The notes: generated from the letters alone by a model not told the origin. A stretch of DNA of 64,000 nt from an uncultured virus (IMG/VR IMGVR_UViG_3300011337_000167) (IMGVR_UViG_3300011337_000167), one strand, 5' to 3'; positions 31,781 through 54,351 are shown, counted from the stretch's first letter. Numbers and translations are program-made.

Positions 31781-33316
31781 TTATACGTTGTAGTACCCTT
31801 TGTGCTTACGTGATCTAAACGCCATTGGCTCGTCTTCATAATCAGATTCCAATGATACAAAGCCACCACGCCTGAATCTTAACAGGGCTTGTGACATGCT
31901 GTCTACTAAGTCATCATGCTCTCCACTAGGAAAAGATGCAACTTCTTCTATAAGTTCTTCCGCCCAGTGTGTTTGAGGAACCCAGACTTTTCCAGAAGCA
32001 AATATGTCTGCTACCGCATTTAGACGAGCAATCTTGTCATTGCCCTTGCTGGGGGTGAACTCTTGGACAGGAATACCCATTGCCCTAAGCTCAAATATTA
32101 AGGGAGACCCTGCCGCCTTGGCTTCGACAATCATAGCGTCTGGTTCCCACTCTTTATATTCTTCATAAGCCTTTTGTTTTAATTCTGGAAACTCCATACG
32201 GCGTTTAAATGCATTTAATAGGATGATATTAGCGCCAGGAACCCCTACCGCATTGTCCCGATAGAACACACCCCACGTTGTACAGGCTGAATAGTCTGCC
32301 CTTTCTGACTTTAAGAACGCCGTATCCCACGACTGGATGACAAATTCACAGCTAGGAGGGCTATCTTGGTCCCAAATCTGCCACCATTCCCGTTTGACGA
32401 TTGCCGAGACGTCAGAAGTAGGTGCTTGCATGTACTGAGCCTGCCATTTACCCGCTGGAAGCTCATTTTTGAGGGCTAAAAGCTCTGTTTGGCTCCAAAA
32501 TTCAGGCCAAAGTGGCTGTCCATCGTCAAAAATAGCTGGAAACTCAATAAGTTTCCATCCCTCGCCCTCTCTTTGAGCATCTGCTTTGATAACTTGACCC
32601 GTTAAGTCCTTCTTAGACCACCGGGTCATCACAATAATGATCGCCCCACCCGGTTGCAGACGCTGTCTTGGACCCGATGTGTACCATTCGTAGGTCTTAT
32701 CGTAGATTTCTGGGTTAGTTTCGGCTATTGTGGCTTCTTGTTCTGAATGCGGGTCGTCAATAATGAGTATATCTGCGCCCTTACCAGTGACCGCTCCACC
32801 AACACCGATTGCAAAGTAATCTCCACCCTTATTAGTTGCCCAACGGCCTGCGGCTTTGCTATCTGCTTGGAGCCCAACTCCCGGAAATATTGACTTGTAT
32901 ATGTCTGAGTCGACCAAATTACGGACTTTGCGTCCGAAGCCCACAGCAAGCTCAGCGGTATGGGAGGTTTGAATAACTTTCTTCTGAGGAAATTTGCCCA
33001 GAAACCAAGCAGGAAGGAGGTAACTAGCAAATTCAGATTTTGTATGCCTAGGGGGCATATTGATAATAAGTCTCTTACACGTTCCATTTGCTACCTCCTC
33101 AAATGCGGCTGCCATATCCTTGTGGTGGCGACCTTCTATGAACACAGGCCAGACCTTCTTTACAAACGACATGAAGCGAATCTGCGCCAACTCTTTGTTT
33201 TGAAGCTTTTCTAATAACTCTAAGTCCTCTGCGAGCTTTAGCTGCTCCGCTTCAGACAACATAGGAAGAATCTTGGGTATATCTTTAAGGGATATGGTAT
33301 CGAGGAGGCTACTCAT
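31781..33316 (-). CDS. terL: Terminase large subunit
   Basis: NMPPRHTKS Walker A, IIDD Walker B, SWDTA and HDDLVDS nuclease motifs. Confidence 0.92.
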   Translation of the reverse strand: MSSLLDTISLKDIPKILPMLSEAEQLKLAEDLELLEKLQNKELAQIRFMSFVKKVWPVFIEGRHHKDMAAAFEEVANGTCKRLIINMPPRHTKSEFASYLLPAWFLGKFPQKKVIQTSHTAELAVGFGRKVRNLVDSDIYKSIFPGVGLQADSKAAGRWATNKGGDYFAIGVGGAVTGKGADILIIDDPHSEQEATIAETNPEIYDKTYEWYTSGPRQRLQPGGAIIIVMTRWSKKDLTGQVIKADAQREGEGWKLIEFPAIFDDGQPLWPEFWSQTELLALKNELPAGKWQAQYMQAPTSDVSAIVKREWWQIWDQDSPPSCEFVIQSWDTAFLKSERADYSACTTWGVFYRDNAVGVPGANIILLNAFKRRMEFPELKQKAYEEYKEWEPDAMIVEAKAAGSPLIFELRAMGIPVQEFTPSKGNDKIARLNAVADIFASGKVWVPQTHWAEELIEEVASFPSGEHDDLVDSMSQALLRFRRGGFVSLESDYEDEPMAFRSRKHKGYYNV

Positions 33317-34185: not shown

Positions 34186-34406
34186 AAACTTGTGGATATT
34201 TAAGTAGGGGGAGGGGGGTTAAGCTACGGTAGACGTATGAGAACGGGGAAAGTGAGGGTGAAATTTTAAAGTTGTGTATCTCTTGTGCAAATTAGTGAGT
34301 ATAGGTGGACTAACAATCCTTTTTTTAATTTTGGGGTGGTGGGGTCGCATGGCTCGCCACGTCCTAACATTGTTAGGGGTAGGGGGTATTTATAGTTTCC
34401 ATAGAG

Positions 34407-34436
34407 TTGAAAATGTAACACAAAATGCTGTATAAT
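34407..34436 (+). promoter_or_regulatory. Sigma70 early promoter P1
   Basis: TTGAAA-18-TATAAT. Confidence 0.7.
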
Positions 34437-34601
34437 AAACTCAAGCAAGCGAAATCTTGCGAGGGCTTCAAGGGTTGAACTAGGTGGGGATCGAATCCCA
34501 CGTGACTTGCGAAGTGACCGCTTTGACCTAGGGGGTGACAGCCCTAGCGAGTGCGAAGTCAGCCAGTAGTTTTCTTTTAACTTTCTTTCTAAGGAATAAT
34601 C

Positions 34602-35129
34602 ATGGATCAAGTATTTGATGTTGCTGATTTAATTACTGCTATCGAGCAAGCCCGTGTTAATGTTGCTGAGGGTTTGCGTGGCGCTTATGGCGCTAAGGTT
34701 GCATATGCTGGTTTGCTCAATCAAAAATGGGCAAGTTTTGACTGGTTTGAACTTAATCACAATGATTCAAGTGATGAGGGCAAAGCAGTAAGGAAAGAGA
34801 AAGAGGCTTTTTACGAAGTCTTAAAGGGTGAGCAACACTCAAACCCCCACAAGATTTGGGGTGACATTCGTAAATACGCTAAGACCGATCGCTATGGCAA
34901 GCCAGTAGTTGATGGCGAGCAAGGCGAGGGTGGCGAGGGTGGCGAGCAAGGCAGTGACAACGCCAAGCATAATCGTTCACCCCAGTTGCGTAACCTTGAG
35001 GAACTTACCGCATTATTCAAGTTCAATCGTCGCCAAGATTCATTGAGTGACGAACTCAAGCAATGCCAAGCATATATCGCCAAGGCATTGGAATCGTTAG
35101 GTGTCAATGTAACAATGATTGGCGACTAA
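34602..35129 (+). CDS. Early protein, paralog A
   Basis: RBS AAGGA; clear paralogy with 36447-36962. Confidence 0.85.
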   Translation: MDQVFDVADLITAIEQARVNVAEGLRGAYGAKVAYAGLLNQKWASFDWFELNHNDSSDEGKAVRKEKEAFYEVLKGEQHSNPHKIWGDIRKYAKTDRYGKPVVDGEQGEGGEGGEQGSDNAKHNRSPQLRNLEELTALFKFNRRQDSLSDELKQCQAYIAKALESLGVNVTMIGD

Positions 35130-35136
35130 CATTGTT

Positions 35137-35167
35137 AGGGGGGTGCAGTTTGCCCCCCTCTTTCTTT
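35137..35167 (+). terminator. Putative terminator
   Basis: G-rich/C-rich hairpin then TTTCTTT. Confidence 0.5.
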
Positions 35168-35190
35168 CTCTTACTTTAATAGGTGCAATT

Positions 35191-35403
35191 ATGATTAAGC
35201 CAATATTTACCCATGACTGTGATACCTGTAAATTTTTAGGTCATGTTTTAACAGTAAATGGTAATGCTGATGTTTACTACTCATGTGACTCAAGAGAAAA
35301 TTATCGTAACCTGATTTTTAGGTATAGCGATGAACCCGCAGATTACAGTCATGTCGGAACTGAACGAACTAAGTATTTATTTGATTTTGAATTTTGTTTA
35401 TAA
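35191..35403 (+). CDS. Small early protein
   Basis: AGGT RBS, HDCDTCKFLG motif. Confidence 0.65.
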   Translation: MIKPIFTHDCDTCKFLGHVLTVNGNADVYYSCDSRENYRNLIFRYSDEPADYSHVGTERTKYLFDFEFCL

Positions 35404-35428
35404 GCCACCCATGCGGTGGCTTTTTTTT
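35403..35428 (+). terminator. Rho-independent terminator
   Basis: AGCCACC-CATGC-GGTGGCT then T run. Confidence 0.8.
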
Positions 35429-35607
35429 GCCCTTGCCCTAACAATGTTAGGGCTTTTTTGTTTCCATCATTTTCCAAAAATGATAGTTCTTAGAAGGGTG
35501 GTAGTCCTAACCCGATTTTTTCCAAGTTTTACCTCGTTGGAAATGATAGTTCTTAGAAGAGTGGTAGCCCATAAGGCAGTCCTAACAATGTTAGGCTTCT
35601 TGCAAAA

Positions 35608-35981
35608 CTTTTCTTATAATAGAAGCCTTTGAAATCAAGGACTTGCGTGTATTATAAGAAAACCAAAAACAAAATCTTACAATATAAAAGTCTTTGTAAT
35701 CAAGGACTTGCAGGGGTTTTTGGGGGTATTATAAGAAAACTGAGAAAATTGAGTGAGCAGGGTCTCGAACGAGGTCTTCACGCAGTGCATTTCTTACATT
35801 AGCAAAGGCAAATCCTCTGGGGGTATATAATTTTTTTTATTTTCTTATTTTCTTATATTATCTATTTTTCTCCTCTCCAAGCCTTATACCTATTCACTTT
35901 TATATTATAAGAAATATCGTAAGAAAAACCTCCACTTTTCTTATATTACCCCCATTTTTCTTATTTTGATTTCTTATATTA
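35608..35981. repeat. AT-rich tract with TTTCTTATWWT repeats and two IHF-consensus sites (origin-like)
   Basis: AATCAAGGACTTG at 35633 and 35698; GTATTATAAGAAAAC twice; many TTCTTA/TAAGAA units. Confidence 0.55.
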
Positions 35982-35995
35982 AGTTTCCACGCACC

Positions 35996-36024
35996 TTGAA
36001 TATTCTCTTATTTTGTGTTATAAT
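35996..36024 (+). promoter_or_regulatory. Sigma70 early promoter P2
   Basis: TTGAAT-17-TATAAT with TG extension. Confidence 0.8.
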
Positions 36025-36054
36025 GTAATCTCAATACAACGAAAGGAATATAAA

Positions 36055-36252
36055 ATGCAAATGACAGACAAAATAAAAAAAGTAATCGAGTGGGGTTTTC
36101 AGTATGACTCTGAGAAAAATGTGTTCTTCCGTTTTGCACCTGAAAATTATGTCGAAGTGTGGAGGGACGATATTTCTTCTGATTGGATTGTGTTTTATTT
36201 AGATGGACAACCAACGCATGATTACTTCATCAAATGGGAGTTGTTTGCCTAA
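36055..36252 (+). CDS. Small early protein
   Basis: AAAGGA RBS after P2. Confidence 0.6.
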   Translation: MQMTDKIKKVIEWGFQYDSEKNVFFRFAPENYVEVWRDDISSDWIVFYLDGQPTHDYFIKWELFA

Positions 36253-36313
36253 ATGGGGAGAGCCTAACAATGTTAGGTTCATTCCTAGAAATTAAAAAAT
36301 CTAGACAGAATAC

Positions 36314-36342
36314 TTGATTTATCCCTTATTTTGTGTTATACT
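36314..36342 (+). promoter_or_regulatory. Sigma70 early promoter P3
   Basis: TTGATT-17-TATACT with TG extension. Confidence 0.8.
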
Positions 36343-36446
36343 ATACTCATAGTAAAAAATAAGAAATGCAGTTGCAGTAGGAGTCAGTTAGGTTCTCCAA
36401 CCAACCTAACAATGTTAGGCAGTATCCAAAACAAGGAGTATTAAAC

Positions 36447-36962
36447 ATGGAATTTATCGCTAATCAAGATGTAGAAGTAATCGTATCCCAAAAGCGTCAA
36501 GGTGCAATTGACGCACAGGCTAGCACTTATGGTGCTAATGTGGAATACGCAGGGGCATTGAACTTGAAGTTCGAGTTCGATTGGTTCGAGTTGCAACACA
36601 ACGACAGTTCGGACGAAGGCAAGGCAGTCCGCAAAGAAAAGACCTTGTTCTTTGAAGGCTTGAAAGAAATCGGGCATTCCAACCCGTCCAAAGTTTGGAA
36701 AGATGTGCGAGATTACGGCAGAGAAAACCGCTACGGCAAACCCGTTGTGCCTACCGCAGAAGGTGCAGATGGTGAGTCCGAGTCCGAAGGGGACGCAAAG
36801 CATAATCGTTCCCCTGAGTTGCGGAACATGGAGGAGTTGCTAGCCCTCTATAAGTTCAACCGCAGACAGGAGTCCCTCTCCCCCAAGATCACCAAGGTGC
36901 AACAAAAGATTGGTGAAGCCTTGCAAGAGATGGGAGTTGATCTCCATATGATCGCAGACTAA
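36447..36962 (+). CDS. Early protein, paralog B
   Basis: AAGGAG RBS; paralog of 34602-35129. Confidence 0.85.
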   Translation: MEFIANQDVEVIVSQKRQGAIDAQASTYGANVEYAGALNLKFEFDWFELQHNDSSDEGKAVRKEKTLFFEGLKEIGHSNPSKVWKDVRDYGRENRYGKPVVPTAEGADGESESEGDAKHNRSPELRNMEELLALYKFNRRQESLSPKITKVQQKIGEALQEMGVDLHMIAD

Positions 36963-36980
36963 TTCTGCCCAACCCCAACC

Positions 36981-37004
36981 AACCCTGCTACGGCAGGGTT
37001 TTTT
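36981..37004 (+). terminator. Rho-independent terminator
   Basis: AACCCTGC-TACG-GCAGGGTT then T run. Confidence 0.8.
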
Positions 37005-37145
37005 ATTTGCCCACGACCTAACAATGTTAGGTCAGACTTTTTGTCATTCGGCTCTCGCCGAAATGACAGTTCCTAGAAAGGTGGTAGCCCATGGGGAATT
37101 CCCTAAAAGTGCGTGGGAACGAGGGTTCAATTCTAGCCAAAAAAC

Positions 37146-37174
37146 TTGATCTGGTCAGTAATTTGTGTTATAAT
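37146..37174 (+). promoter_or_regulatory. Sigma70 early promoter P4
   Basis: TTGATC-17-TATAAT with TG extension. Confidence 0.8.
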
Positions 37175-37259
37175 ATAAGATATATATGAGAATAAAAATT
37201 CGCCCTCATTTTATTTTTTGCAACCCCCTAACAATGTTAGGTCTAACAAGGAGAAGTGT

Positions 37260-37355
37260 ATGAAGTTCATGGATAGCGACATCTTTGCAGTTGCTTTAAT
37301 TGTGTTCACAGTTTTGTTTGTGCTGGTTCATGTCATTTTGTATCTAACCAAATAG
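37260..37355 (+). CDS. 31-aa membrane peptide
   Basis: AAGGAG RBS; MKFMDSDIFAVALIVFTVLFVLVHVILYLTK. Confidence 0.55.
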   Translation: MKFMDSDIFAVALIVFTVLFVLVHVILYLTK

Positions 37356-37364
37356 GAGGTAGTC

Positions 37365-37517
37365 ATGCGTGTAATCGTTATTTTTGAATATAAGGGTATC
37401 CCTGCTGATGGTGAGCAGGCAGATCAAATTGTTGAGGTTGTCGGCAAGGCTTGCGAATCCATGGGTAATGAAGTGGGTGCAGGTGCTTGTTTTGTTGAAG
37501 ATGTTGAGTGGGACTAA
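37365..37517 (+). CDS. 50-aa acidic early protein
   Basis: AGGAGGT RBS; MRVIVIFEYKG...EDVEWD. Confidence 0.6.
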   Translation: MRVIVIFEYKGIPADGEQADQIVEVVGKACESMGNEVGAGACFVEDVEWD

Positions 37518-37532
37518 ACAGGAGACCTAACA

Positions 37533-37736
37533 ATGTTATATGGCTTTGATTGTGAATGTGGCTTGGAGATACCGATTGGCAGACTTGACCTAGGGTATAC
37601 GACATGCCTAAAGTGTGGCGACATTGAGGCAAAGCGTGTAAAGCATATTGTGCAAATCCCGTATTCCAAGGGTGCGTATCAATATATCCACAACCCACAA
37701 GACTTATGTTTTACCAACCCAAAGAGGACAACATGA
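37533..37736 (+). CDS. DksA/TraR-like zinc-finger small protein
   Basis: CECG.EIP..RL.LGY.TC..C. Confidence 0.55.
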   Translation: MLYGFDCECGLEIPIGRLDLGYTTCLKCGDIEAKRVKHIVQIPYSKGAYQYIHNPQDLCFTNPKRTT

Positions 37737-37942
37737 CCGAAGAAGAGATTGCGTTGATACGAGGTATCGAGCAGGTAGATGTAAGCCTTACCGATATTGC
37801 GATAACCAAAGGGCATGCCTATGCACAGGGATACAACACTTACATAGGGAAAATTGAAGATCGAGAAGGCTATATGTATCTTAAGCAAGGCTACACAGAC
37901 GGCTTTCTTGCAGGGTTCGCACACAGAATGGGGGGTGGATAA
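37733..37942 (+). CDS. Small early protein
   Basis: GAGG RBS, coupled. Confidence 0.55.
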   Translation: MTEEEIALIRGIEQVDVSLTDIAITKGHAYAQGYNTYIGKIEDREGYMYLKQGYTDGFLAGFAHRMGGG

Positions 37943-38125
37943 ATGGCGACGCATTACAAGGGACATAGGATTGCTGAGTTGTTGGAGGATATTGATAGGC
38001 TCAGTAAGGAGTTGGAAGAGAACCGAGATTCTCTTGAAAACGAGGTGCAAGCGATTAGGGCTATTGAAGCAGAAACATTGCTCGCTATCGCCAAGGCTAA
38101 ATTAACCGCATTACAAGGAGAGTGA
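37943..38125 (+). CDS. Small coiled-coil protein
   Basis: Adjacent in operon. Confidence 0.55.
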   Translation: MATHYKGHRIAELLEDIDRLSKELEENRDSLENEVQAIRAIEAETLLAIAKAKLTALQGE

Positions 38126-38126
38126 T

Positions 38127-38354
38127 ATGACTAGATGGCATGGAGTGCCCGAAGGGGTGAAGTGGGAAAAAGGCAGTTCGATTGAGGATATTACGCTAGA
38201 CGCACAAGACGAGTTTTATGTGTTCGACGAAGAGAATGGCAACATCTTTTTGGACGATGACCGCTTGGTCTTTTGCGAAGGATTCAATCGTGGGCAAGAG
38301 GCTATGCGTGCCAAAGTCCTAACAATGTTAGGGGAGATGAAAGATGGGGTATAG
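38127..38354 (+). CDS. Small acidic protein
   Basis: AAGGAG RBS. Confidence 0.6.
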   Translation: MTRWHGVPEGVKWEKGSSIEDITLDAQDEFYVFDEENGNIFLDDDRLVFCEGFNRGQEAMRAKVLTMLGEMKDGV

Positions 38355-38868
38355 GTCTCAGGTGGCAGGTTGCATTAGCGTGGACAGGGAGGAAAGGCAC
38401 GACGAGCAAGGCAAATCATACAGCTACTACGATAAGGCTAAGTTCAAAGAGATGGTTGGCTTTATCAAGTTGTCTCGGTTTTGGGAGTTGTGGAATGGCA
38501 AAGCTGATTCTGATTCGTTCGGGTGGAAAGATGGTGCGTTCATTCTTTACGGCTCGGATTGGAAGTGGTATCCCGACTACGACGATGTAAAAGCGTGGGA
38601 CGAGTTGTGGGAGAGCATGCAAAAGGTTGAGGGTATAAGTGGGTATTTTGTGCGAGTAGGGGAAGAGCAGGCAGACATTGAGGAGATGGAGTTTGGAGAC
38701 GACCCATGCACCGACTACTTCCACGCATTTAGTGCTATGCAGTTTGATGGAGATTCTTTTTTAGGAAAGCGAGATACAGATGATGAAGAAAACCAAGCAG
38801 AGCAAGCACCGACCAATCCGCAAGAGAAATCCTGTGGTGGTAGCGTTGCTCAGTCAGCCCAAGCGTAA
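38344..38868 (+). CDS. Acidic early protein
   Basis: MGYRSQV..WKWY..FVRVGEE motif. Confidence 0.7.
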   Translation: MGYRSQVAGCISVDREERHDEQGKSYSYYDKAKFKEMVGFIKLSRFWELWNGKADSDSFGWKDGAFILYGSDWKWYPDYDDVKAWDELWESMQKVEGISGYFVRVGEEQADIEEMEFGDDPCTDYFHAFSAMQFDGDSFLGKRDTDDEENQAEQAPTNPQEKSCGGSVAQSAQA

Positions 38869-38939
38869 TGCAGGGCGACACGGGCGGAATCCTAACAATG
38901 TTAGGTCTAAGCAAGTAAATATAACGGAGGAATAAACAA

Positions 38940-39872
38940 ATGTATGGACACCAAAGAAACTCGGGCATACCCCATATTAACGACTACGCTACTGCGTTAA
39001 AGTTATGGGAAGATACCAAGCCTATTCGTGGTAGGGCGGTAGATACAAGACCACTAGGTCATCGTCGCAACGACCACTACTTAATTAACTTCAAGCCTGA
39101 AGGTGCGGTAGAGTGCATTCTCTACAAGACTCCTGTCGTAATCTTTTGGGAGAACGGAGATGTAGTCCTCCGCCACGATGGATATAACAGCGTATCCACA
39201 TGCAACTTTATTGGTGAGGTGCTAGGTATCCATAGTTCGATCTTTAACTACAACACCTTAGTTGGTTTTGGTGGTAAGGACTATATCGTGCCTATCGAGG
39301 GCTTGACCATTAGACGCAATCACAATTGGGTATACGAGCCTGTGAATCCTACCCCTGTGATAGGACATGCTCTTGATCGCAAAGGGGCTAACAATGTTAG
39401 GGTGCGGTATCACCCCTTTTACTCCTACTTGAGTAGTATGTGTAGGCTTAAAGCTGGCAGCGACTATCCGCAAACCGAGATGTATCGGGTGTTTGGCAAG
39501 ACCGAGGGTAAGTATCCAAGACCAAAGATGCCTGCTGATCTGAGCCATGACGAACGCAATGGGTGGGAGGACTCCGTCAAACTGTTCTTTAACTTGATTA
39601 CAGATACCAAAGAAGAGACAAAGAACGACTCGTTCTACAAAGCGATCTTGCAAATGGCTTATTCGTTTGGCATAACCAAGTGGGGTAATGGTAGTGAAAC
39701 CGAAGGCTATGTGCTACATGAGAAGAAAGCATTGAAAGCTTTTGATGAGTTGATTATTGGCTTTCATCGTTTTGAGACGCTAAAAGAAAAGGTGCTACCC
39801 GAGGGTGTCGTGCGTAAAGATTCCAACGGGAAATACTTTAGAGGCGGTTGGAAGAGGTTGCACAACAAGTGA
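38940..39872 (+). CDS. Early hypothetical protein
   Basis: GGAGG RBS, 310 aa. Confidence 0.75.
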   Translation: MYGHQRNSGIPHINDYATALKLWEDTKPIRGRAVDTRPLGHRRNDHYLINFKPEGAVECILYKTPVVIFWENGDVVLRHDGYNSVSTCNFIGEVLGIHSSIFNYNTLVGFGGKDYIVPIEGLTIRRNHNWVYEPVNPTPVIGHALDRKGANNVRVRYHPFYSYLSSMCRLKAGSDYPQTEMYRVFGKTEGKYPRPKMPADLSHDERNGWEDSVKLFFNLITDTKEETKNDSFYKAILQMAYSFGITKWGNGSETEGYVLHEKKALKAFDELIIGFHRFETLKEKVLPEGVVRKDSNGKYFRGGWKRLHNK

Positions 39873-39937
39873 GCTTGATGAGCTTCTCGTAAAGTGCTAC
39901 CCCGTATCCAAATATATGCAAGCTTTGGCTAGAAAAC

Positions 39938-39966
39938 TTGATTTAGTCAATAAATTGTGTTATAAT
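39938..39966 (+). promoter_or_regulatory. Sigma70 early promoter P5
   Basis: TTGATT-17-TATAAT with TG extension. Confidence 0.8.
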
Positions 39967-40079
39967 ATAGTATATATTAAATAATAAAAATGAGTTTAAT
40001 AGTAGTAAGTTGTGGAGCACCCTAACAATGTTAGGTCTATTGCAGTAGATGTAATTCAATTAACAAGGAGAAACTTAGT

Positions 40080-41147
40080 ATGGCTGAATTAAATTTTGGT
40101 AAAACAGTAACGCTTGCCCAAGCGTCAAACATTATTCTTTCCACCCCGATGAACCGCTACTTCTTAAGAGGCGAGCCAGGGATCGGCAAATCGTCTCTGC
40201 TTAAGTCGTTATCAGCAAGCCTGCCTGACCATGAGGTGTCTTACATTGATGTGCCTAACATGGACTTGGGTGATATTGCTATGCCCGTCATTGATCGGGA
40301 GACAAAGACTACTGCCTACTACCCTAACAGTAGATTCAAAATCCATCTGGGTAAACCCGTCATAACAATGTTAGATGAGTATACGAAAGGTGCTGATCCC
40401 ATTAAGAACATGTTGCACCCAATGCTCGAGGTGGCTAACCCAAGGCTCGGTGATATTACTTTGCACCCCGATAGCATTACTTTCCTAACAGGTAATCTCT
40501 CAAGCGACGGCGTAGGCGATAGCCTTAAGGCTCATAGTATGAATCGTATTATCCCTTTGCATGTGAGCAAGCCTGATGCAGACCAATGGATTGCGTGGGC
40601 TATTGAGAACAATATTGCCCCCGAGGTGATTGCGTGGGTTCGTCAATTCCCCCATGCCCTAGCCTCTTACCTTGATTCGAGTCAGTCGGATAACCCATAC
40701 ATTTTCAATCCAAAGAAAGTGCAGTCAGCGTTCGTCTCTCCTCGTAGTCTAGAACGAGTATCTAACATTGTTAGGGTGCGGTCTAAATTGGATAGCGATA
40801 GCTTGATATGTGCAATGAGTGGTGCGGTAGGTGAGTCAGCCTCTCGTGATATGCAAGCATACATAGAGTTCTCGGATCAGCTTCCAACTTGGGAGTCTGT
40901 GATTGCAAATCCAAAGACGGCTCATGTTCCCGAGTCAGCAGGTGCATGTGCAATTATTGTGTTCGGTGCAATCGCTAAGGTGGATAAGCAAACAATGCCT
41001 AAGTTCATGGAATACATTGAGAGATTCCAAGCCGAGTGGCAAGCATGCTTTGCTATCAATATCGCCAAGTCTCCAACCAAACAACAGATTGCTTTCAGTT
41101 CATCGAAGTTTGCTGATTGGGTGCAGAAGAACGAGGACTTGCTGTAA
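40080..41147 (+). CDS. MoxR-like AAA+ ATPase
   Basis: GEPGIGKS Walker A, MLDE Walker B, TGN sensor, SPRS. Confidence 0.85.
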   Translation: MAELNFGKTVTLAQASNIILSTPMNRYFLRGEPGIGKSSLLKSLSASLPDHEVSYIDVPNMDLGDIAMPVIDRETKTTAYYPNSRFKIHLGKPVITMLDEYTKGADPIKNMLHPMLEVANPRLGDITLHPDSITFLTGNLSSDGVGDSLKAHSMNRIIPLHVSKPDADQWIAWAIENNIAPEVIAWVRQFPHALASYLDSSQSDNPYIFNPKKVQSAFVSPRSLERVSNIVRVRSKLDSDSLICAMSGAVGESASRDMQAYIEFSDQLPTWESVIANPKTAHVPESAGACAIIVFGAIAKVDKQTMPKFMEYIERFQAEWQACFAINIAKSPTKQQIAFSSSKFADWVQKNEDLL

Positions 41148-41308
41148 TGGCTAGGGGAGTTAAGGGTAGTGGAGTATCCCGAGAGTCTATCCGACAGATG
41201 CAGAAGAACGCTTTGCGTAGAGCAAGGCGGTTGCTAGCCAAGCGTGGGTATAAAGCGGAAGACTTTTTTGATGTGTGGACAACAAGGAGAACTAACAATG
41301 TTAGGTAA
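41147..41308 (+). CDS. Small basic protein resembling sigma70 region 4.2
   Basis: TAATG coupling; GVSRESIRQMQKNALRRAR. Confidence 0.5.
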   Translation: MARGVKGSGVSRESIRQMQKNALRRARRLLAKRGYKAEDFFDVWTTRRTNNVR

Positions 41309-42515
41309 TAGCGAAGTAGTAGTAAAGGATAAAGAGGAACGCAGATTGAGCAAGGTGAAAATCTCCATCATGCGTAACCCCAAGTTTGCTTTGTGGTCTG
41401 GTCTTATGACTGTTGGCAAGACTAGCGTAGTGGAAGACATTCCAAGTGCATGCACTAACGGCAGAGATGAGCAGTATGGTCGTGAGTTCATTAAGAAGTT
41501 GGACGACAAAGAGTTGGCATTCGTGGTGTTGCATGAGACATTGCACAAAGCGTATCGACACATGATTACATGGAAGAGATTGCATGACGAGGATCATAGA
41601 CTTGCAAACCTTGCGTGTGATTATGTAATCAACCTTCAGCTAGTAGATATGGACAAGGACGAGTTGCTACTTGCCATGCCTAAGCGTCCTGATGGTAAGC
41701 CACTAGGTGCAATCGACGAACGCTTCAGAGGAATAACGCTAAGCAAATCTTTGACATTCTTAAGGAAGAGCAAGACGAAGGCGGTGGCGGTAGCGGTGGT
41801 GGCGAGGGATTCGACGAGCATGATTGGGAAGGTGCGGAAGGCTCTAAGCGAAGAGGAGAAGAAACAGTTAGAGAAGGAGGTCGATCAGGCTATTCGTCAA
41901 GGGATTATTGCCGAGCAGAAAGTTGTAGGCAAAGGCGGTGGTCGCATGGGTCGAGACCTAGCTGATCTAGTTGAACCCAAGGTGGATTGGCGAGAGGTGT
42001 TGCGTGAATTTGTTAAAGCTACATGTAATGCAAAAGACACAAGTTCGTGGCGACGAGTTAATCGTAGATATTTATCGGGTGATATCTATATGCCTAGCTT
42101 AATAGGTGAAAGAGTTGGGCATCTGGTGATTGGCATTGATACGAGTGGCTCGGTAGGTAATAAGGAACTTGGTGAATTCTTATCCGAAGTGCAGTCGATT
42201 GCGAAAGATGTTCACCCCGATAAAGTCGATCTCATTTATTGGGACGGCGAAGTTGCGGGGCATGAGGAGTATTCCTCTAGTCAAGTAGATTCAATCATTG
42301 ATTCAACCAAACCCAAGGGTGGTGGTGGCACTGATCCTACTTGCGTAATGGAATACATGAAAGAGAAAGCGATCAAGCCCGAGGCAATCATCATGCTTAC
42401 TGACGGCTACATCGGTAATTGGGGAGACGAGTGGAATGCACCGATTCTATGGACTATTGTTGGCAACAACAGAGATTATGCCCCTGTGGGTAAAACGATA
42501 CATGTTAAGGACTAA
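41298..42515 (+). CDS. Metallopeptidase-like plus vWA protein (DUF2201-type)
   Basis: HETLH, NLACDYVIN, IDTSGS MIDAS, GGGTD, LTDG. Confidence 0.85.
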   Translation: MLGNSEVVVKDKEERRLSKVKISIMRNPKFALWSGLMTVGKTSVVEDIPSACTNGRDEQYGREFIKKLDDKELAFVVLHETLHKAYRHMITWKRLHDEDHRLANLACDYVINLQLVDMDKDELLLAMPKRPDGKPLGAIDERFRGITLSKSLTFLRKSKTKAVAVAVVARDSTSMIGKVRKALSEEEKKQLEKEVDQAIRQGIIAEQKVVGKGGGRMGRDLADLVEPKVDWREVLREFVKATCNAKDTSSWRRVNRRYLSGDIYMPSLIGERVGHLVIGIDTSGSVGNKELGEFLSEVQSIAKDVHPDKVDLIYWDGEVAGHEEYSSSQVDSIIDSTKPKGGGGTDPTCVMEYMKEKAIKPEAIIMLTDGYIGNWGDEWNAPILWTIVGNNRDYAPVGKTIHVKD

Positions 42516-42519
42516 TCCT

Positions 42520-42762
42520 ATGGCTAAAGTAATTGTTGAATTTGGGTATGACAAAGCGTATGTAATGGAGGCTGACAAAGCCCTAACATTGTTAGACCTA
42601 ATGAAAGATGCAGAAGTGTTCAAAGAGAATTGGAGATCGAGTGATAAGGGTGGCAACACCTTTCACATCTACCCCCAAGAGAAGGAGTTGTGCAGTATGA
42701 AAGTATTGAGTAGCAATATGTATTCAATGGCAAGACTAGCAGGCAAACCTGAATCAAACTAA
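42520..42762 (+). CDS. Hypothetical protein
   Basis: AAGGA RBS. Confidence 0.6.
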   Translation: MAKVIVEFGYDKAYVMEADKALTLLDLMKDAEVFKENWRSSDKGGNTFHIYPQEKELCSMKVLSSNMYSMARLAGKPESN

Positions 42763-42777
42763 CGAGGAGAAGCAAAC

Positions 42778-43635
42778 ATGAGTATTTCATCTAGTGCAGT
42801 ATTGGTAGAACTAAACATAAGTGTTTGGACTGCCAACAAGTTGGACAAGGGTGCAACCGAGGCGGTGCTTAGCAATAACTCAGCAAGCAAAGACTCAGCC
42901 CAAGTGCGTAAGAACTTAATGGCAGGAACGGACAAGCGTAAAAAGATCTCTGACTACGCTGCTAAGGCTAGGCTCTACCACAATCAGACTACGCTATCGT
43001 GGTCGGACAAAGGTGCGAGGCTACTGCCTACTAGCCTGTTCTTAGACTACAAGTCAAACATGAATGTGTATCAGAAGAACATGAACACCATGATCGAGGA
43101 CTTCTATGTGAACTATGCAGACTTGATTGACTTGGCAAAACATCACATGGGTGATCTCTTCAACCCTTATGACTATCCAAGTATCGAGGAGTTGCGGAGT
43201 AAGTTTGGATTCCGCTTGGTATTCTCTCCGTTGCCCGAGGGTGGGGACTTCCGTCTCGACATTCCCAAGGCAGACATGGAAGAACTAGGTGAGCAGTATG
43301 AGTCAGCGTTCAACGACAGGCTCAAAGATGCTATGCGTGAACCATGGGAGAAGCTACACAAAACTCTTACCCATATTTCAGAAAAGCTAACCGATGTAGA
43401 GGGTGATGACGAGACCAAGAAGAGGTATCACGATACCCTGATTACTAATGCTCAGGAGTTGTGCGGACTGCTATCTCACTTGAACGTAACGAAAGACCCA
43501 CTACTCGAGAATGCCCGCCGTTCCCTTGAACTAACAATGTTAGGGGTTGACATCGAGGCGATCAAGGAAAGCCCTGATGTGCGTAGTAGCGTGAAGGCAA
43601 AGGTTGATGACATTCTTAGTAAGTTTGATTGGTAA
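42778..43635 (+). CDS. Conserved protein associated with AAA/vWA modules (DUF3150-like)
   Basis: LNISVW, TLSW..G.RLLP, DYPSIEELRSKF. Confidence 0.55.
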   Translation: MSISSSAVLVELNISVWTANKLDKGATEAVLSNNSASKDSAQVRKNLMAGTDKRKKISDYAAKARLYHNQTTLSWSDKGARLLPTSLFLDYKSNMNVYQKNMNTMIEDFYVNYADLIDLAKHHMGDLFNPYDYPSIEELRSKFGFRLVFSPLPEGGDFRLDIPKADMEELGEQYESAFNDRLKDAMREPWEKLHKTLTHISEKLTDVEGDDETKKRYHDTLITNAQELCGLLSHLNVTKDPLLENARRSLELTMLGVDIEAIKESPDVRSSVKAKVDDILSKFDW

Positions 43636-43646
43636 GGAGATAACTA

Positions 43647-44483
43647 ATGACGTATGCAAATATTGAATTGAAAGAGCATGACCGCTTTGGTGATGGGATT
43701 AAACGACGAGCAACGATTGATCCGTTCCTCAAAGACTTAATCGAGCAATTAGCTTTGAAGTATCCACAATGGACATTCGTAGAGACAAGTGCTACTGCTA
43801 TGGCAAGCGATAAAACGTATGTTGCTCACCGCTTTGACATTAAGGATAAGCGAGAGACCCTAGGCACAATCGACAAAGACTACTCTAGTAACGGTTATCG
43901 GTATCGTATTGACAATCATCGCATTGAAAGTATGCGTGAACGTGGTTGTGGTATGAAAACGATTCACCTTAACAAGGCAATCAAGCATGTAGATAAATTC
44001 TTTAGTAGGAAAAGTGTAAGTGAAAAACTTGCAGAGGCTACGCTAAAGGTAGGACAAGTTGTGGGGCAGATAGCTAACGAGAAAGAGTGGGCTTTGCGAC
44101 ATACATGGAACTCGTTGGAGACACCTATTAAACAGTTTGTAACTAATAATTACCAACAGTTTATGGATAGTCTAGTAGACAAATCTAGTATTGCTATACA
44201 GCTTGAGCAATTCCCTAAGCAGTTAGAGGAAGAGAGATCGGTGGATCACATGAAAGACATGTTGGCGAAAGGCAACGCTTTTGTTGTGTTCATAGATGGT
44301 ATACACTATTCTGTGCAAAAGGGCAAAGACCCTTTACAAATAAAAGAGAGTGATGAGTTGCCTGACTTTATGCGTAGGGCGATAGGGCTACTCAAGTTAG
44401 TTGAAGATAATCAAGTAGTTAGTGGAGTAGGTTTGCGTGTCAACGAATCTACTTTCTTAGTATTACCTAACAATGTTAGTTAA
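43647..44483 (+). CDS. Hypothetical protein
   Basis: AAGGAG RBS, 278 aa. Confidence 0.7.
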   Translation: MTYANIELKEHDRFGDGIKRRATIDPFLKDLIEQLALKYPQWTFVETSATAMASDKTYVAHRFDIKDKRETLGTIDKDYSSNGYRYRIDNHRIESMRERGCGMKTIHLNKAIKHVDKFFSRKSVSEKLAEATLKVGQVVGQIANEKEWALRHTWNSLETPIKQFVTNNYQQFMDSLVDKSSIAIQLEQFPKQLEEERSVDHMKDMLAKGNAFVVFIDGIHYSVQKGKDPLQIKESDELPDFMRRAIGLLKLVEDNQVVSGVGLRVNESTFLVLPNNVS

Positions 44484-44493
44484 GGAGAAGATT

Positions 44494-44709
44494 ATGTTTA
44501 ATAAAAAACGACATGTATTCATAGTAGATGATTCACCTAGACAAGAAAGGATAACGTCTATGGCTTTAGATAAAGACTCAAAGTTTAAGTGGACTACGGG
44601 TGCTGACGTATTAAGAACGTGGAAAAAGCATGGGTTTGTTCCACCTACTGAATACCGAGATGACTACTTGTTTAAGTTAAATCGTGATGCTAACAAACCA
44701 ACAGAATGA
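44494..44709 (+). CDS. Small protein
   Basis: AAGGAG RBS; TWKKHGFVPP. Confidence 0.6.
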   Translation: MFNKKRHVFIVDDSPRQERITSMALDKDSKFKWTTGADVLRTWKKHGFVPPTEYRDDYLFKLNRDANKPTE

Positions 44710-44718
44710 GAGGAGAGT

Positions 44719-44925
44719 ATGAATGAAGTAACCATAAAACGAAGCAGAGGCAGAGGCAAAGGAATGAAGCCTGCAATGGTTTACCTACCTGTGCGTATCA
44801 GCCAAGAAGTAGCAGATTTTTTCAACGCTTACCCTAACAAGAGTGCAAAGATTAGGGAAGTATTAGCTAGTTATGTTCAACAACATGGAGAAACAAATGA
44901 GAAAGAAACTCACCAAAAGCAGTAA
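44719..44925 (+). CDS. Putative ribbon-helix-helix DNA-binding protein
   Basis: RGRGKG..LPVRISQEVADFF..SAKIREVL pattern. Confidence 0.5.
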   Translation: MNEVTIKRSRGRGKGMKPAMVYLPVRISQEVADFFNAYPNKSAKIREVLASYVQQHGETNEKETHQKQ

Positions 44926-45358
44926 AGTAATTCGTTACATCAAGAAGAACCCAAATGCCAAGGCGAAAGAAGTGTCGCAGGTAACAGGAGTTCCGATTGC
45001 TAGCGTGTATCAAACCGCTTACAAAGTGCGAAAGCAAATGCGTGAAGGTATGGCTAAAGTGCAGATGACCGCCCTATCGCCTAAGCGTGCCGCAAGTAAA
45101 ACTACTAGGGGTATGAAAGTAATAGCAACTTACACGAGCAACAAGAGCATTAAGTCTGACATGGTCAACCACCCACCGCACTACAAGGCAGGGGGTATTG
45201 AGACGATTGATTTCATTGAAGCTAAGAACCTAGGGTATAACCTAGGTAATGTAGTGAAGTATGTAAGTCGTGCCGATTTGAAAGGCAATAAGTTGGAAGA
45301 CTTACAGAAAGCTAAATGGTATTTGGATCGGGCTATTAGTAATCTTAGCAAGACCTAA
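44897..45358 (+). CDS. HTH plus DUF3310-like protein
   Basis: N-terminal HTH pattern; VNHPPHY..GNVVKY..EDLQKAKWYL. Confidence 0.75.
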   Translation: MRKKLTKSSKVIRYIKKNPNAKAKEVSQVTGVPIASVYQTAYKVRKQMREGMAKVQMTALSPKRAASKTTRGMKVIATYTSNKSIKSDMVNHPPHYKAGGIETIDFIEAKNLGYNLGNVVKYVSRADLKGNKLEDLQKAKWYLDRAISNLSKT

Positions 45359-45516
45359 CAATGTTAGGGGGCAGTTTGATTATAGATAGAACCTAGTAGC
45401 CTTGTAGATGCGAATGATTTTGTCTTCAGCTAGTTTGCCCCGATACTTTATGGCTAGCTGAATCCTTGTTAACTCTGAGGGTGGCAGAGAATCTACATCT
45501 CCACCCATTTTTCTCC

Positions 45517-45544
45517 TTGACAAAGTCCAACACCATGTTATTAT
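45517..45544 (+). promoter_or_regulatory. Sigma70 promoter of replication genes
   Basis: TTGACA-16-TATTAT with TG extension. Confidence 0.6.
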
Positions 45545-45550
45545 GGTGGC

Positions 45551-45880
45551 ATGGCACTAACTCCCGAAAAGAAAGTTAAAGACAAATGCGTCAAGCTACT
45601 TAAGGCTTACGACGCTTATTACTTTTTCCCTGCTACCCATGGTTATGGACGTAGCGGTGTGCCTGATATTATTTGTTGCATTGCAGGAAAATTTGTAGCT
45701 ATTGAGTGCAAGGCAGGCGACAATAAGCCTACTGCATTACAAGAAAAAGAAATGGCAGACATTCGTAAACAGGGTGGAATTGCCGTCGTAATAAATGAAA
45801 GCAACCTAACATTGTTAGAGGGATTGCTAAAAGATTTAACAGGGGCTAACGACGAGGAGGACATAGATGGCAGATGTTGA
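45551..45880 (+). CDS. VRR-NUC nuclease
   Basis: PE.KVK, GVPD, IECKA, PTALQ. Confidence 0.85.
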   Translation: MALTPEKKVKDKCVKLLKAYDAYYFFPATHGYGRSGVPDIICCIAGKFVAIECKAGDNKPTALQEKEMADIRKQGGIAVVINESNLTLLEGLLKDLTGANDEEDIDGRC

Positions 45881-46274
45881 AATGAACAAAGGGGTTCAGA
45901 TATTACTTGAACGCATGAACAGTAACCCCGATGAATTTATCCCTACCCTACGAGATGGGTATCCTCCAAAATGGCGAGACATTCTCCTCTCTATTGAGAT
46001 GCGAACCAATGGGGGTAAGGAATACAAAGATCAGTTGCCGTTCCTAAACGACAAAGAAGTCAAAGCCCTATGGGAGAAGATGCAGAGCTTGCAAGGCGAG
46101 CTGTTTACTAAGCGAGTTATGGATACCCTGCTACGTGATGCCCATGATTTTGAAATACTTGAAACCATGAAGCAGTTGCCCCTACTGCTAGAGGAGTTGG
46201 AGAGGCATTCTCCTGCGGAACTATCATCTCTTTCTCGGCAAGTCGCAGGCGGTAGGCTCAAAAAAATAAAATGA
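45867..46274 (+). CDS. Hypothetical protein
   Basis: GGAGGA RBS, coupled. Confidence 0.6.
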   Translation: MADVEMNKGVQILLERMNSNPDEFIPTLRDGYPPKWRDILLSIEMRTNGGKEYKDQLPFLNDKEVKALWEKMQSLQGELFTKRVMDTLLRDAHDFEILETMKQLPLLLEELERHSPAELSSLSRQVAGGRLKKIK

Positions 46275-48094
46275 AAATTTTTTGTTTAGACTTTGAGACC
46301 TATTACTCTCAAACCTTCTCCCTTAGCAAAATTACCACGGAAGAGTACGTCCGTAGCCCTGAGTTTGAAACCATCGGGGTGGCGGTGTGCGAACAAGGGA
46401 GCGCTCCTACTTGGTTTAGTGGTACTAAAGCAGATACAAAGAAGTTTTTGGATAGCTTTGAACTCAACAAGCATCTCGTGATAGCCCACAACGCTATGTT
46501 TGACATGGCTATCCTTAATTGGCAGTTTGATATAAGACCCAAGGGTATTGCTGATACTTTATCAATGGCAAGAGCCATACATGGCACGGAGGTTGGCGGT
46601 AGCCTTGCTAAGTTGGCGGAACACTATGGACTTGGAGTAAAAGGCACAGAAGTCTTACAAGCACAAGGTAAACGTCGGATTGACTTTAATGCGCAGGACT
46701 TGGCACAGTATGGCGAGTATTGCAAAAACGATGTGGTGCTTACGATGGGTTTGTTTGAGCAACTAAGTGCGGGCTTTCCTCCTAGTGAGTTACGACTTAT
46801 TGACCTGACTATCCGTATGTTTACTGAGCCTAGCCTATGGCTTGACGGCAACATGCTACATGACCATTTAGCTGAAGTACGGCAGAGGAAAGAAAGTTTA
46901 CTAGCAAGTATCGAGAAAGAAAAAGAGCACTTGATGAGTAACGACAAGTTTGCCGAGTTACTTATTGCACAGGGCATAGAACCCCCAACTAAAATTAGTC
47001 CTGCAACAGGTAAAGAGGCATGGGCATTTGCCAAGACCGATGAAGGGTTTAAGGAACTACTTGAACATGAGAACGAAGTGGTGCAATTATTAGCATCAGC
47101 GCGCTTAGGAGTGAAGTCAACCATTGAAGAAACAAGGACTGAACGCTTTATTGAAATAGCGCAGCGAGGCTTATTCCCCATACCACTACGCTACTATGCA
47201 GCTCATACAGGTCGTTGGGGCGGTGATGACAAGGTAAACCTACAAAACTTACCACGAGGCTCAATCCTCAAAGATGCAATTATGGCTCCCCCCGGGCACG
47301 TCGTTGTGGACTCTGACTCTAGTCAAATAGAAGCAAGAACGCTAGCGTGGCTGGCTGAACAGAATGATTTAGTGGATGCGTTTGAAAGGGGCGAAGATGT
47401 ATACAGAATCATGGCGTCGTCTATCTATAACAAGGCAACTGAAGAAATTAGCAAGGACGAAAGGTTCGTTGGTAAGACGACGATATTGGGATGTGGCTAC
47501 GGCATGGGGAGTGCGAAATTCAAAGCGCAACTCAAGACGTTCAACGTGGATATTGAGGAGGAGGAAGCCACACGTATTATTAAAGTCTACCGCCAAACTT
47601 ATGATTGGATTCCGCAACTATGGAATCAAGCTAACAAAGCACTAGATGCAATACTTAACAACCAAACTGCGACGCTTGGCAAGGTAGATGTCCTGCAAGT
47701 AGAGGGCAGAAGAGGCATTCGATTGCCAAACGGACTGTATATGAAGTACCCAAACCTACGCAAGATGCGTAACGAGCAGGGTAAGGACGAGTATGTCTAC
47801 GATATCAAGAAAGGCAAAGCAGTTGTGCCTAACAGGATATATGGTGGGAAAGTTATTGAGAACGTCTGCCAAGCGTTAGCCCGAATCATCGTTGGTGAGC
47901 AGATGCTACAAGTAGCTAAAAAATATAAAGTGGTAATGACTGTGCATGATGCGATTGCTTGCGTAATACCTGAACAAGAATCGGAAGCTGGTCAAGAGTA
48001 TGTGGAGATGTGTATGAAGATGCGACCCAAGTGGGCACAAGACCTGCCGTTGAGTTGCGAGTCAGGAATGGGGAGAAGTTATGGCGATTGCTAA
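46271..48094 (+). CDS. Family A DNA polymerase with 3'-5' exonuclease
   Basis: DFET, AHNAMFD, HTGRW, DSSQIEAR, KTTILGCGYG, VHD. Confidence 0.92.
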   Translation: MKIFCLDFETYYSQTFSLSKITTEEYVRSPEFETIGVAVCEQGSAPTWFSGTKADTKKFLDSFELNKHLVIAHNAMFDMAILNWQFDIRPKGIADTLSMARAIHGTEVGGSLAKLAEHYGLGVKGTEVLQAQGKRRIDFNAQDLAQYGEYCKNDVVLTMGLFEQLSAGFPPSELRLIDLTIRMFTEPSLWLDGNMLHDHLAEVRQRKESLLASIEKEKEHLMSNDKFAELLIAQGIEPPTKISPATGKEAWAFAKTDEGFKELLEHENEVVQLLASARLGVKSTIEETRTERFIEIAQRGLFPIPLRYYAAHTGRWGGDDKVNLQNLPRGSILKDAIMAPPGHVVVDSDSSQIEARTLAWLAEQNDLVDAFERGEDVYRIMASSIYNKATEEISKDERFVGKTTILGCGYGMGSAKFKAQLKTFNVDIEEEEATRIIKVYRQTYDWIPQLWNQANKALDAILNNQTATLGKVDVLQVEGRRGIRLPNGLYMKYPNLRKMRNEQGKDEYVYDIKKGKAVVPNRIYGGKVIENVCQALARIIVGEQMLQVAKKYKVVMTVHDAIACVIPEQESEAGQEYVEMCMKMRPKWAQDLPLSCESGMGRSYGDC

Positions 48095-50143: not shown

Positions 50144-50304
50144 TCGTGGAAAGAAATATTGCTCGAGCTGTACTAGTTATAAGCCTGATATTGGTGGTCA
50201 AGTGCTTGTTGTTGGTAGTCGGCATAGACCAATTCGACGATGGAAGTGTGCTCACTGCCTAGCAAAGATTTCACAAGCTAAATACTCATCAAAGAAAAAA
50301 TAAT

Positions 50305-53041: not shown

Positions 53042-53069
53042 AGTGGTTCGTAGTTAGAAGGAGCTAAAA

Positions 53070-54349: not shown

Positions 54350-54351
54350 TA

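Follow-up and report, generated by a model that had tools for sequence, protein, structure and literature searches.

The repressor of phiC31, a temperate actinophage with a known repressor gene, acts at conserved inverted repeats (CIRs) of 17 bp, many intergenic copies of which lie in the early region, near the early promoters, and are served by this one phage repressor. Plasmid RK2 carries 12 OB sites, the operators of KorB. OB is described as a palindrome of 13 bp that has an odd base at its centre (the OB oligonucleotide contains TTTAGCGGCTAAA), present in many identical copies, many of them far from the promoters that they control, and KorB as a CTP-dependent sliding clamp of the ParB family (PMC11790492). 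The accounts of Cluster A mycobacteriophages (L5, Bxb1, Trixie) give tens of near-identical 13-bp stoperators per genome, mostly outside promoters, where the bound repressor blocks elongation; their motifs differ between related phages and track the distance between the repressors (PMC6550527, PMC9283540). As these accounts present them, stoperators lack symmetry, follow the direction of transcription and occur throughout the genomes of temperate phages, and the repressor that binds them is a two-domain monomer (PMC6550527, PMC9283540). The PeSL motifs of T4-type phages are described as composite promoter and terminator motifs, which flank small variable early genes and coincide with the end points of insertions, deletions and replacements (PMC2839356, PMC4122927). 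Here we describe a palindrome of 13-15 bp (duplex form CTAACAATGTTAG) that recurs in the early block of an uncultured virus (IMGVR_UViG_3300011337_000167), of which a stretch of 64,000 nucleotides, called the window throughout, was analysed. The feature extends to a whole family of freshwater phages, in which the palindromic sites are genome-specific and under strong nucleotide-level selection.

The window contained 19 perfect copies of CTAACAWTGTTAG and two with one mismatch (37527 and 40362), and shuffled sequences contained practically none. The 15-mer CCTAACAWTGTTAGG occurred exactly 11 times, against 0.00 expected (100 shuffles), and the 13-mer core CTAACANTGTTAG, with up to one mismatch allowed, gave 22 matches against 0.26 expected (shuffle maximum 2). 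All but one of these 22 matches fell in 34364-45818, the exception being a one-mismatch match at 15969. Successive copies were 142 to 1291 nt apart, all lay within the + strand early block (Table 1), and the copy-bearing stretch of ~11.5 kb makes up 18% of the ~64.5 kb genome. This size is that of a circular map, deduced from a near-identical record (G001) whose first 14.25 kb correspond to window 49779-64000; the same record covers the ~544 nt of the circle outside the window, and no further copy was found there.

The central base was A in 16 copies and T in five. Two copies hold a start codon (ATG 37533 and ATG 41298) and two hold the TAA stop of a gene (34602-35129 and 44873-45358), and the copies inside genes are translated in two phases (ITMLD, LTLL and LTML versus NNVR and NIVR); the peptide at copy 40362, VITMLDE, we take to be the Walker B stretch of the AAA+ ATPase. 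The left arm carries TAA and the right arm TAG, in the same frame. Among the distinct sites, 127 of the 711 having an upstream stop codon overlap that stop, and the element doubles as a compact stop-and-start junction. A sequence-only reading of the window had reported 21 copies restricted to an 11.5-kb early region, with 16 A and five T centres, over two start and two stop codons and in two codon phases; the genome-wide motif scan with shuffles, the near-identical record, the count over the copies and re-reading of the genes agreed with it throughout. A search of the window matched no Rfam family, and megablast of the region gave no match among GenBank phages. Nothing relevant was found in the literature with isolate names and generic terms, a narrow search that is no proof that the element is undescribed.

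For the comparison with relatives, the ATPase was used as query, 426 related stretches were obtained from IMG/VR, and 80 loci of these were compared. A recurrent palindrome of the same family (at least three occurrences) was present in 76 of the 80 loci, with one dominant variant per genome; the sequence-only reading had suggested a test for conserved or co-varying palindromes in relatives. The loci without it were L042, L066, L077 and L078; L066 carries CTAAC-N3-GTTAG six times. By our own labelling of the 80 loci and the window, CTAACA half-sites are separated by a spacer of 1 nt (class CTA1, 42 loci), 2 nt (CTA2, 18 loci) or 3 nt (CTA3, 3 loci), ATAACA half-sites by 1 nt (ATA1, 5 loci) or 2 nt (ATA2, 1 locus), and CTGACA half-sites by 2 nt (CTG2, 2 loci); three loci have almost no sites (class none) and seven are mixed or unclear. 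A site 33-58 nt upstream of the ATPase start was found in nearly every locus and was always the phage's own variant. The position of copy 1 was kept in 17 of the 18 relatives displayed (exception L060).

Selection on these sites acts at the level of nucleotides. Distinct sites in the relatives were nearly invariant within each genome: 616 were perfect and 57 had one mismatch at positions 2-6, and the outermost position alone was loose (146 mismatches). Inside the ATPase gene, a choice among synonymous codons maintains the sites. Most 1-nt phages spell the peptide SNIV(R/K) as TCTAACATTGTTAG, and it is spelled AGCAACATCGTC, TCCAACATCGTC and other ways in CTG2, CTA3, motif-less and several 2-nt phages; a site is present in PVITMLDEY in about 35 one-nt phages, and the same peptide is spelled ATAACTATGCTCG in the 2-nt phages L033 and L035.

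The variants also switch in concert between close relatives. All 20 sites of L085 are of the 2-nt kind and all 16 sites of L089 of the 1-nt kind, at homologous positions, in phages with 98.3% identical ATPases and 97.2% identical DUF3150 proteins; around one of these sites, ~95 nt of context are identical save one extra base in the palindrome and one single-nucleotide polymorphism. This concerted, genome-wide retuning argues for a reader encoded by the phage, since structure alone or a host factor would leave it unexplained, and supports a phage-specific, sequence-specific factor that would read the sites in trans. Both selection on the nucleic acid rather than the peptide and a phage-specific recognition factor had been proposed from the window alone; the first is supported by the same peptides being spelled with the palindrome or with other codons according to class, and the second by the variant switches between near-identical phages.

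The sites are concentrated around gene starts. In a set of 734 distinct sites, a start codon is overlapped by 15% and follows the end of the site by 10-30 nt in 19% (random positions, 2% and 4%); 43% overlap a start codon or end up to 50 nt before it (random, 10%). In 117 of 745 distinct sites a start codon is overlapped, with a central base of A 60 : T 0 or AA 53 : TT 0, and the central base is unbiased in intragenic sites (A 88 : T 85) and in other gaps (79 : 75). The excess of A over T among the window copies (16 to 5) arises because the central A creates an ATG that is used as start codon. Intragenic sites number 198 of the 745, and, with internal copies in the longer genes, every stretch of the block is near a site.

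The same kind of arrangement was found with another palindrome in the Synechococcus phage MinM2 (OQ594354.1, locus L091), a distant relative (terminase 49% and DUF3150 30% identical). Its locus (2197-38560) carries about 21 copies of the unrelated palindrome GGTTCAG-N-CTGAACC, nearly all right after a stop codon and ~10 nt ahead of the next Shine-Dalgarno (SD) sequence, including the gap upstream of MoxR, and with a TCC flank on one side only. Two copies lie in the oppositely oriented late block, in the TerL/portal gap and in the gap after GroES. When hidden Markov models of the families with at least eight members among the 60 largest were searched against MinM2, only MoxR, VWA and DUF3150 proved to be common, and the other matches were antisense shadows of terminase and portal genes. 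DSL-LC04, a phage related through its terminase that has just the structural module in common, has neither the MoxR/VWA module nor a recurrent palindrome.

We consider it somewhat probable, judging from these sequence comparisons, that the sites are operators of a two-fold symmetric, sequence-specific, phage-encoded protein that controls the early block. Host RNA polymerase would start early transcription at sigma-70-type promoters, and a factor made early would occupy the ~20 sites, which lie in 5' leaders, across start or stop codons and within early genes of greater length. Once bound, it would block the elongating polymerase and access to gene starts, and perhaps ribosome loading; the early module would be shut off or throttled as one block, and the replication genes beyond 46 kb would escape. 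The site upstream of the first early promoter may provide feedback on expression of the factor itself. Six strong sigma-70-type promoter-like sites were found in the block, with TG ahead of the -10 in most, and this layout recurs in relatives; several window sites come after predicted promoters or terminators. The sequence-only reading had suggested roadblock silencing, and the site positions fit: the copies at 36406, 37228 and 40022 lie in 5' leaders, +47 to +70 below three predicted promoters, and copies occupy ribosome-binding regions; the silencing itself is what we infer. Its other suggestion, that the bound protein organises or protects the genome end, found no support, the map being circular and no terminus having been found. 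A sigma-70 promoter hidden in the palindrome was considered and rejected, as no consistent -10 or -35 partner was present across the 21 contexts.

Several observations weigh against control by such operators. The promoters and terminators are predictions, made from consensus matches only. In L068, blocks of two site variants stand together with two hybrid sites as a mosaic, which indicates that phages can tolerate non-cognate sites for some time at least. Several phages of the 2-nt kind retain sites with a 1-nt spacer within the ATPase gene and ahead of the first promoter, the latter site remaining of the 1-nt kind in three of them. A known DNA-binding fold was found for none of the candidate binders. 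Finally, sites in leaders retain a strand bias (AA 40 : TT 9; AC 14 : GT 0), which, together with the tie to ribosome-binding regions, would also fit recognition on messenger RNA (mRNA).

An element that works on the early mRNA, where a phage RNA-binding protein or endoribonuclease would read the short hairpin or the sequence beside ribosome-binding sites and repress translation or cut the polycistronic transcripts at gene junctions, is unlikely, although the residual bias in leaders lends it some weight. All the window copies lie in the + strand early block, the start-proximal enrichment and the leader strand bias given above are expected of it, 117 of 745 sites use their internal ATG as start codon, and the MinM2 sites stand between stop codon and SD sequence with a one-sided flank. 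Other data count against it. Single mismatches that give G-U pairs in + strand RNA were not favoured (9, versus 7 of the A-C kind), and complementarity of the flanks beyond the motif was at chance (0.33 vs 0.31; 0.19 vs 0.23), with no compensatory pairing. The RNA hairpins were marginal (centroid energy ~-5 kcal/mol, z-scores -0.83 to +0.32) and were missing from the minimum-energy fold in two of six contexts. The innermost pair (A...T, or G...C in MinM2) stays symmetric although pairing across a one-base loop is impossible, the first predicted promoter comes only after the first site in 17 of the 18 relatives displayed, and two MinM2 sites lie in the late block, which has the opposite orientation. 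The mismatch, flank, hairpin, innermost-pair and first-site data, and the even central-base counts in intragenic sites and other gaps, favour recognition of double-stranded DNA by a symmetric dimer.

That the palindromes serve mainly as recombination points, as shared junction sequences with a stop and a start codon at which related phages exchange or lose early gene cassettes, in the way proposed for PeSL motifs, is quite unlikely. Of 635 ends of similarity with relatives, 61 fall within 15 nt of a copy (9.6%, versus 5.6% at random), variant contigs from public runs leave the window sequence at or beside copies (35451, 37527, 40036, 40774 and 45821), insertions concentrate in the ATPase-VWA gap and at the left end, and L068 is a mosaic of variant blocks. 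This enrichment is modest and would be expected of anything at gene boundaries, and recombination would leave unexplained both the 198 intragenic sites kept by codon choice and the concerted switch of one spacer base in otherwise identical context; no recombinase was detected among the proteins scanned. Recombination at the sites is more likely to be a by-product than the function under selection.

More doubtful still is binding of a host protein (a global regulator or nucleoid protein), with variants that mirror different hosts. Covariation identified no phage-encoded binder, which speaks for it, but spacer or half-site can differ between phages whose core proteins are 98-99% identical, a range of spacers from 1 to 3 nt with changes of half-site is unexpected for one conserved factor, and loss of the motif accompanies loss of a phage gene. 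Hairpin promoters for an injected phage RNA polymerase are very improbable: a 6-bp stem with a 3-nt loop resembles the early promoters of coliphage N4, the MoxR and VWA genes are N4-like, a 2118-aa virion-type protein is encoded and many copies end 10-30 nt ahead of a start codon, but no polymerase domain was found in that protein (PHROGs, Pfam and PDB sequence search), strong sigma-70-type promoter-like sites precede the early genes, the 117 of 745 sites with a start codon inside have their SD sequence upstream and 198 are intragenic, and the element is without direction. Plain terminators are likewise a poor fit to the data.

If the sites are operators, the p175 family, which is represented by two paralogues in the window (p175a and p175b), is tentatively the leading candidate for the binder, on mixed evidence that leaves it possible but doubtful. 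Of the 25 loci whose upstream side is fully covered, 22 had a p175 member. None was present anywhere in the contigs that contain L077 (44 kb) and L042 (34 kb), both with almost no sites, and a distant member was found in the L051 contig. Two p175 subfamilies were joined by profile comparison (97.9% probability). The p175 proteins of L085 and L089 are barely alignable, and that of L085 is 98.3% identical to p175 of L052, which is also of the 2-nt class. Between L058 (CTGACA, 2 nt) and L057 (CTAACA, 1 nt), the ATPases are 99.4% identical and the p175 proteins belong to different subfamilies. L041 and L042 have 99% identical ATPases; L041 has p175 and four perfect sites, and L042 lacks p175, lacks the site upstream of the ATPase and has one perfect site. 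Structure prediction supports a symmetric p175 homodimer: the score was 0.78, versus 0.01 for the best of three controls, a mark that 20 of 30 proteins solved as pairs of one chain and one of 23 solved as single chains also reached, and the runs agreed in at least 74% of contacts, with a predicted local distance difference test (pLDDT) value of at least 78 for the partner. The modelled chain is all-helical (pLDDT 79.8).

Other findings count against p175. Its predicted fold had no convincing match by Foldseek or VIA-align against the PDB (best Z 7.1, a helical protein), or in BFVD, and p175a is net acidic by our residue count. Its subtypes and the motif classes do not correspond one to one: long and short subtypes alike occur in the 1-nt class, the ATAACA-1 motif is common to L048 and L054 despite very different p175 proteins, and the window has two paralogues and one motif. 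In the swapped pairs, other small genes of the left end were exchanged alongside p175. No similarity was found between p175 and the first early gene of MinM2.

The remaining candidates were p68, p67 and the protein with a helix-turn-helix-like (HTH-like) region and DUF3310, and they were rejected because they are near-identical across classes or occur in motif-less phages. Among the proteins of the block, p68 and the HTH-DUF3310 protein are the two with recognisable features of DNA binding. The p68 orthologues match BrnA_antitoxin PF14384 (L040, E 3.3e-7; L043, E 1.6e-3), and p68, with its basic KKRGRGKGKKP arm, is conserved in 69 loci; it is 98.6% identical in L057 (CTAACA, 1 nt) and L075 (CTGACA, 2 nt) and occurs in the motif-less L077 and L078. 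The HTH-DUF3310 protein, considered as the determinant of spacing, is near-identical across classes and present in motif-less phages. The zinc-ribbon protein p67, conserved in 51 loci including motif-less ones, presumably resembles DksA/TraR-type proteins, which bind RNA polymerase. Small open reading frames (ORFs) common to L085 and L052 were acidic, Cys-rich or spurious in appearance. Covariation, assessed with identity tables and a residual test on 13 families, gave no clear binder signal (best values, DUF3310 +4.1 points and p108 +3.0). For p310 and p278, nothing was found in Pfam, the PDB sequence search or the ESM Atlas.

Other repeats were observed in two loci with few sites. In L042, the half-site-like word CATAACATT occurs nine times in 6511-7668 (0.26 expected), five of them as direct repeats within ~110 nt; this array looks iteron-like and lies at the place where p175 would be. 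L051 carries a second, non-palindromic repeat like AAAACCTTACAATACA, 10-14 times, beside a few CTAACA-N3-TGTTAG sites.

In the window, the structural genes occupy the - strand from 1 to 34001, and the + strand block begins at 34602 with many small unannotated genes. Neither an RNA polymerase gene nor an integrase was found among the proteins scanned. The coordinates of the palindromes, genes and predicted promoters are collected in Table 1.

Table 1. Palindrome copies, genes and promoter-like sites in the window, by position.
Feature	Position	Strand	Description
Portal	29318-31771	-	
Large terminase	31781-33316	-	
Copy 1	34364-34376		CTAACATTGTTAG, perfect as 15-mer; between divergent predicted promoters, ~30 nt before the -35 element of the first early promoter-like site
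First early promoter-like site	34407-34436	+	TTGAAA-18-TATAAT, consensus match
p175a	34602-35129	+	First early gene
Copy 2	35126-35138		Centre T; contains TAA of p175a; terminator-like 35137-35159 next
Copy 3	35438-35450		Intergenic, just 3' of terminator-like 35402-35422; with its own T run also scores terminator-like
Copy 4	35582-35594		Intergenic, or within doubtful ORF 35330-35632
Promoter-like site	35996-36024		Consensus match
Copy 5	36264-36276		Begins 12 nt past stop of 36013-36252; upstream of promoter-like 36314-36342
Promoter-like site	36314-36342		Consensus match
Copy 6	36406-36418		5' leader of p175b, ~+58 to +70 from the start implied by 36314-36342; 28 nt upstream of ATG 36447
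p175b	36447-36962	+	Paralogue of p175a (54% identity)
Copy 7	37018-37030		3' of terminator-like 36981-37000
Promoter-like site	37146-37174		Consensus match
Copy 8	37228-37240		5' leader below promoter-like 37146-37174; 19 nt upstream of ATG 37260
Copy 9	37527-37539		CTAACAATGTTAT, one mismatch; internal ATG 37533 is the start of p67; SD upstream of copy
p67	37533-37736		Zinc-ribbon protein, CxxC...CxxC, 67 aa
Copy 10	38319-38331		3' end of 38127-38354; 12 nt upstream of ATG 38344
Copy 11	38892-38904		Intergenic; 35 nt upstream of ATG 38940 (p310)
Copy 12	39388-39400		Within p310; translated NNVR
Promoter-like site	39938-39966		Consensus match
Copy 13	40022-40034		5' leader of MoxR-like ATPase, below promoter-like 39938-39966
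MoxR-like ATPase	40080-41147	+	
Copy 14	40362-40374		ATAACAATGTTAG, one mismatch; within ATPase, encodes ITMLD
Copy 15	40762-40774		Centre T; within ATPase, encodes SNIVR
Copy 16	41292-41304		DUF2201/VWA protein starts at internal ATG 41298; SD upstream of copy
DUF2201/VWA protein	41298-42515	+	
Copy 17	42583-42595		Centre T; within 42436-42762
DUF3150-like protein	42778-43635	+	
Copy 18	43531-43543		Within DUF3150-like gene
Copy 19	44467-44479		Over final codons of 43647-44483; 3 nt upstream of the SD of the following gene
p68	44719-44925	+	Ribbon-helix-helix protein with basic N-terminal arm
HTH-DUF3310 protein	44873-45358	+	N-terminal helix-turn-helix-like region, C-terminal DUF3310
Copy 20	45355-45367		Contains TAA of 44873-45358
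Promoter-like site	45517-45544		Consensus match
Small endonuclease	45551-45880	+	
Copy 21	45806-45818		Centre T; within endonuclease gene; last before DNA polymerase A
DNA polymerase A	46271-48094	+	Followed by remaining replication genes; palindromes end just before

Upstream of copy 1, a conserved non-coding layout was observed in the window (34290-34362) and in relatives, consisting of a half-site that stands alone (GGACTAACAATCC), a run of T and a run rich in G (TTTTGGGGTGGTGGGG), and a box like ATTTATTGTTTCC lies between the copy 1 palindrome and the first promoter; the conserved layout may represent an origin or a packaging signal. The ATPase and VWA genes are separated by a gap (41147-41298 in the window) that ranges from 13 to 1920 nt among relatives and contains varied small genes, and it is an insertion hotspot bounded by palindromes. 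Outside the early block, a lone 13-bp palindrome of the same architecture with other arms (TTGACATTGTCAA) was observed at 53014-53026, at the end of the SNF2 helicase gene, and the same word is present in L048. Three tandem 15-nt units (GTAATAGTAGGYGAA, + strand) lie at 16371-16410, inside a - strand gene of the tail-fibre region. The 2118-aa protein (57761-64000, - strand; also L093, 7983-14339) has an LPD39 domain and a DarB-like C-terminal half, and its first ~1200 residues gave no match.

If the operator reading holds, p175 may form a so far unrecognised family of symmetric DNA-binding dimers, with specificity groups set by spacing and half-site preference, such that arrival of a new p175 retunes ~20 operators; we rate this fuller scheme as slightly more doubtful than the candidacy of p175 itself. 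After exchange of p175 by recombination, retuning of the operators would proceed through single-base insertions and deletions and synonymous changes. If true, this would be an immunity-group-like system in phages that give no indication of lysogeny, and co-infections between close relatives may be decided by it. The palindromes themselves provide a clean natural experiment on how a regulator and its full site set change together: near-identical phages differ by one base in each of ~20 sites, and synonymous changes of codon create and remove sites within genes. In lakes and rivers the phage family is abundant (426 related IMG/VR stretches; seven studies of public runs, with no RNA run among those listed), and its early genes are almost all unannotated. 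More than 1000 clusters of the p175 family exist in freshwater viromes, each of them labelled hypothetical; identification of the binder would name a protein family of this size, would explain the control of the early genes and could yield orthogonal operator-regulator pairs that differ only in spacing.

Among the described systems, the stoperators of Cluster A mycobacteriophages, to which the sequence-only reading had likened the palindromes, are apt in their logic: here too there are many near-identical sites whose variants track the phage lineage, and the window sites lie mostly outside the predicted promoters, in leaders and junctions. The analogy fails on symmetry and on genome-wide spread. 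Unlike stoperators, the window sites are palindromic and have no strand bias outside start codons (as the intragenic A to T counts show), all 21 copies are held within the early block, and variation is by spacer length. No integrase or known repressor family turned up, and no direct search for a homologue of the stoperator repressor was made. With the KorB operator OB of RK2, the window site shares its 13-bp length, odd centre, palindromic form and many identical copies; unlike OB, which belongs to a plasmid backbone, it is found in a phage early region, and no ParB-like Pfam or PHROG match was present among the + and - strand proteins scanned, which did not include every small ORF. The phiC31 CIRs, which are highly conserved, resemble the element as inverted repeats in many copies of an early region; they are longer, and they belong to a temperate phage. 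The T4-type PeSL motifs are similar in that repeats stand at the borders of small variable early genes. They differ from the element described here, which is a bare 13-15 bp palindrome, often intragenic, preceded by a promoter-like site in only three of 21 copies (at variable distance) and provided with a T run in two of 21. As proposed for PeSLs, the shared sequence at the junctions probably also aids the exchange of gene cassettes.

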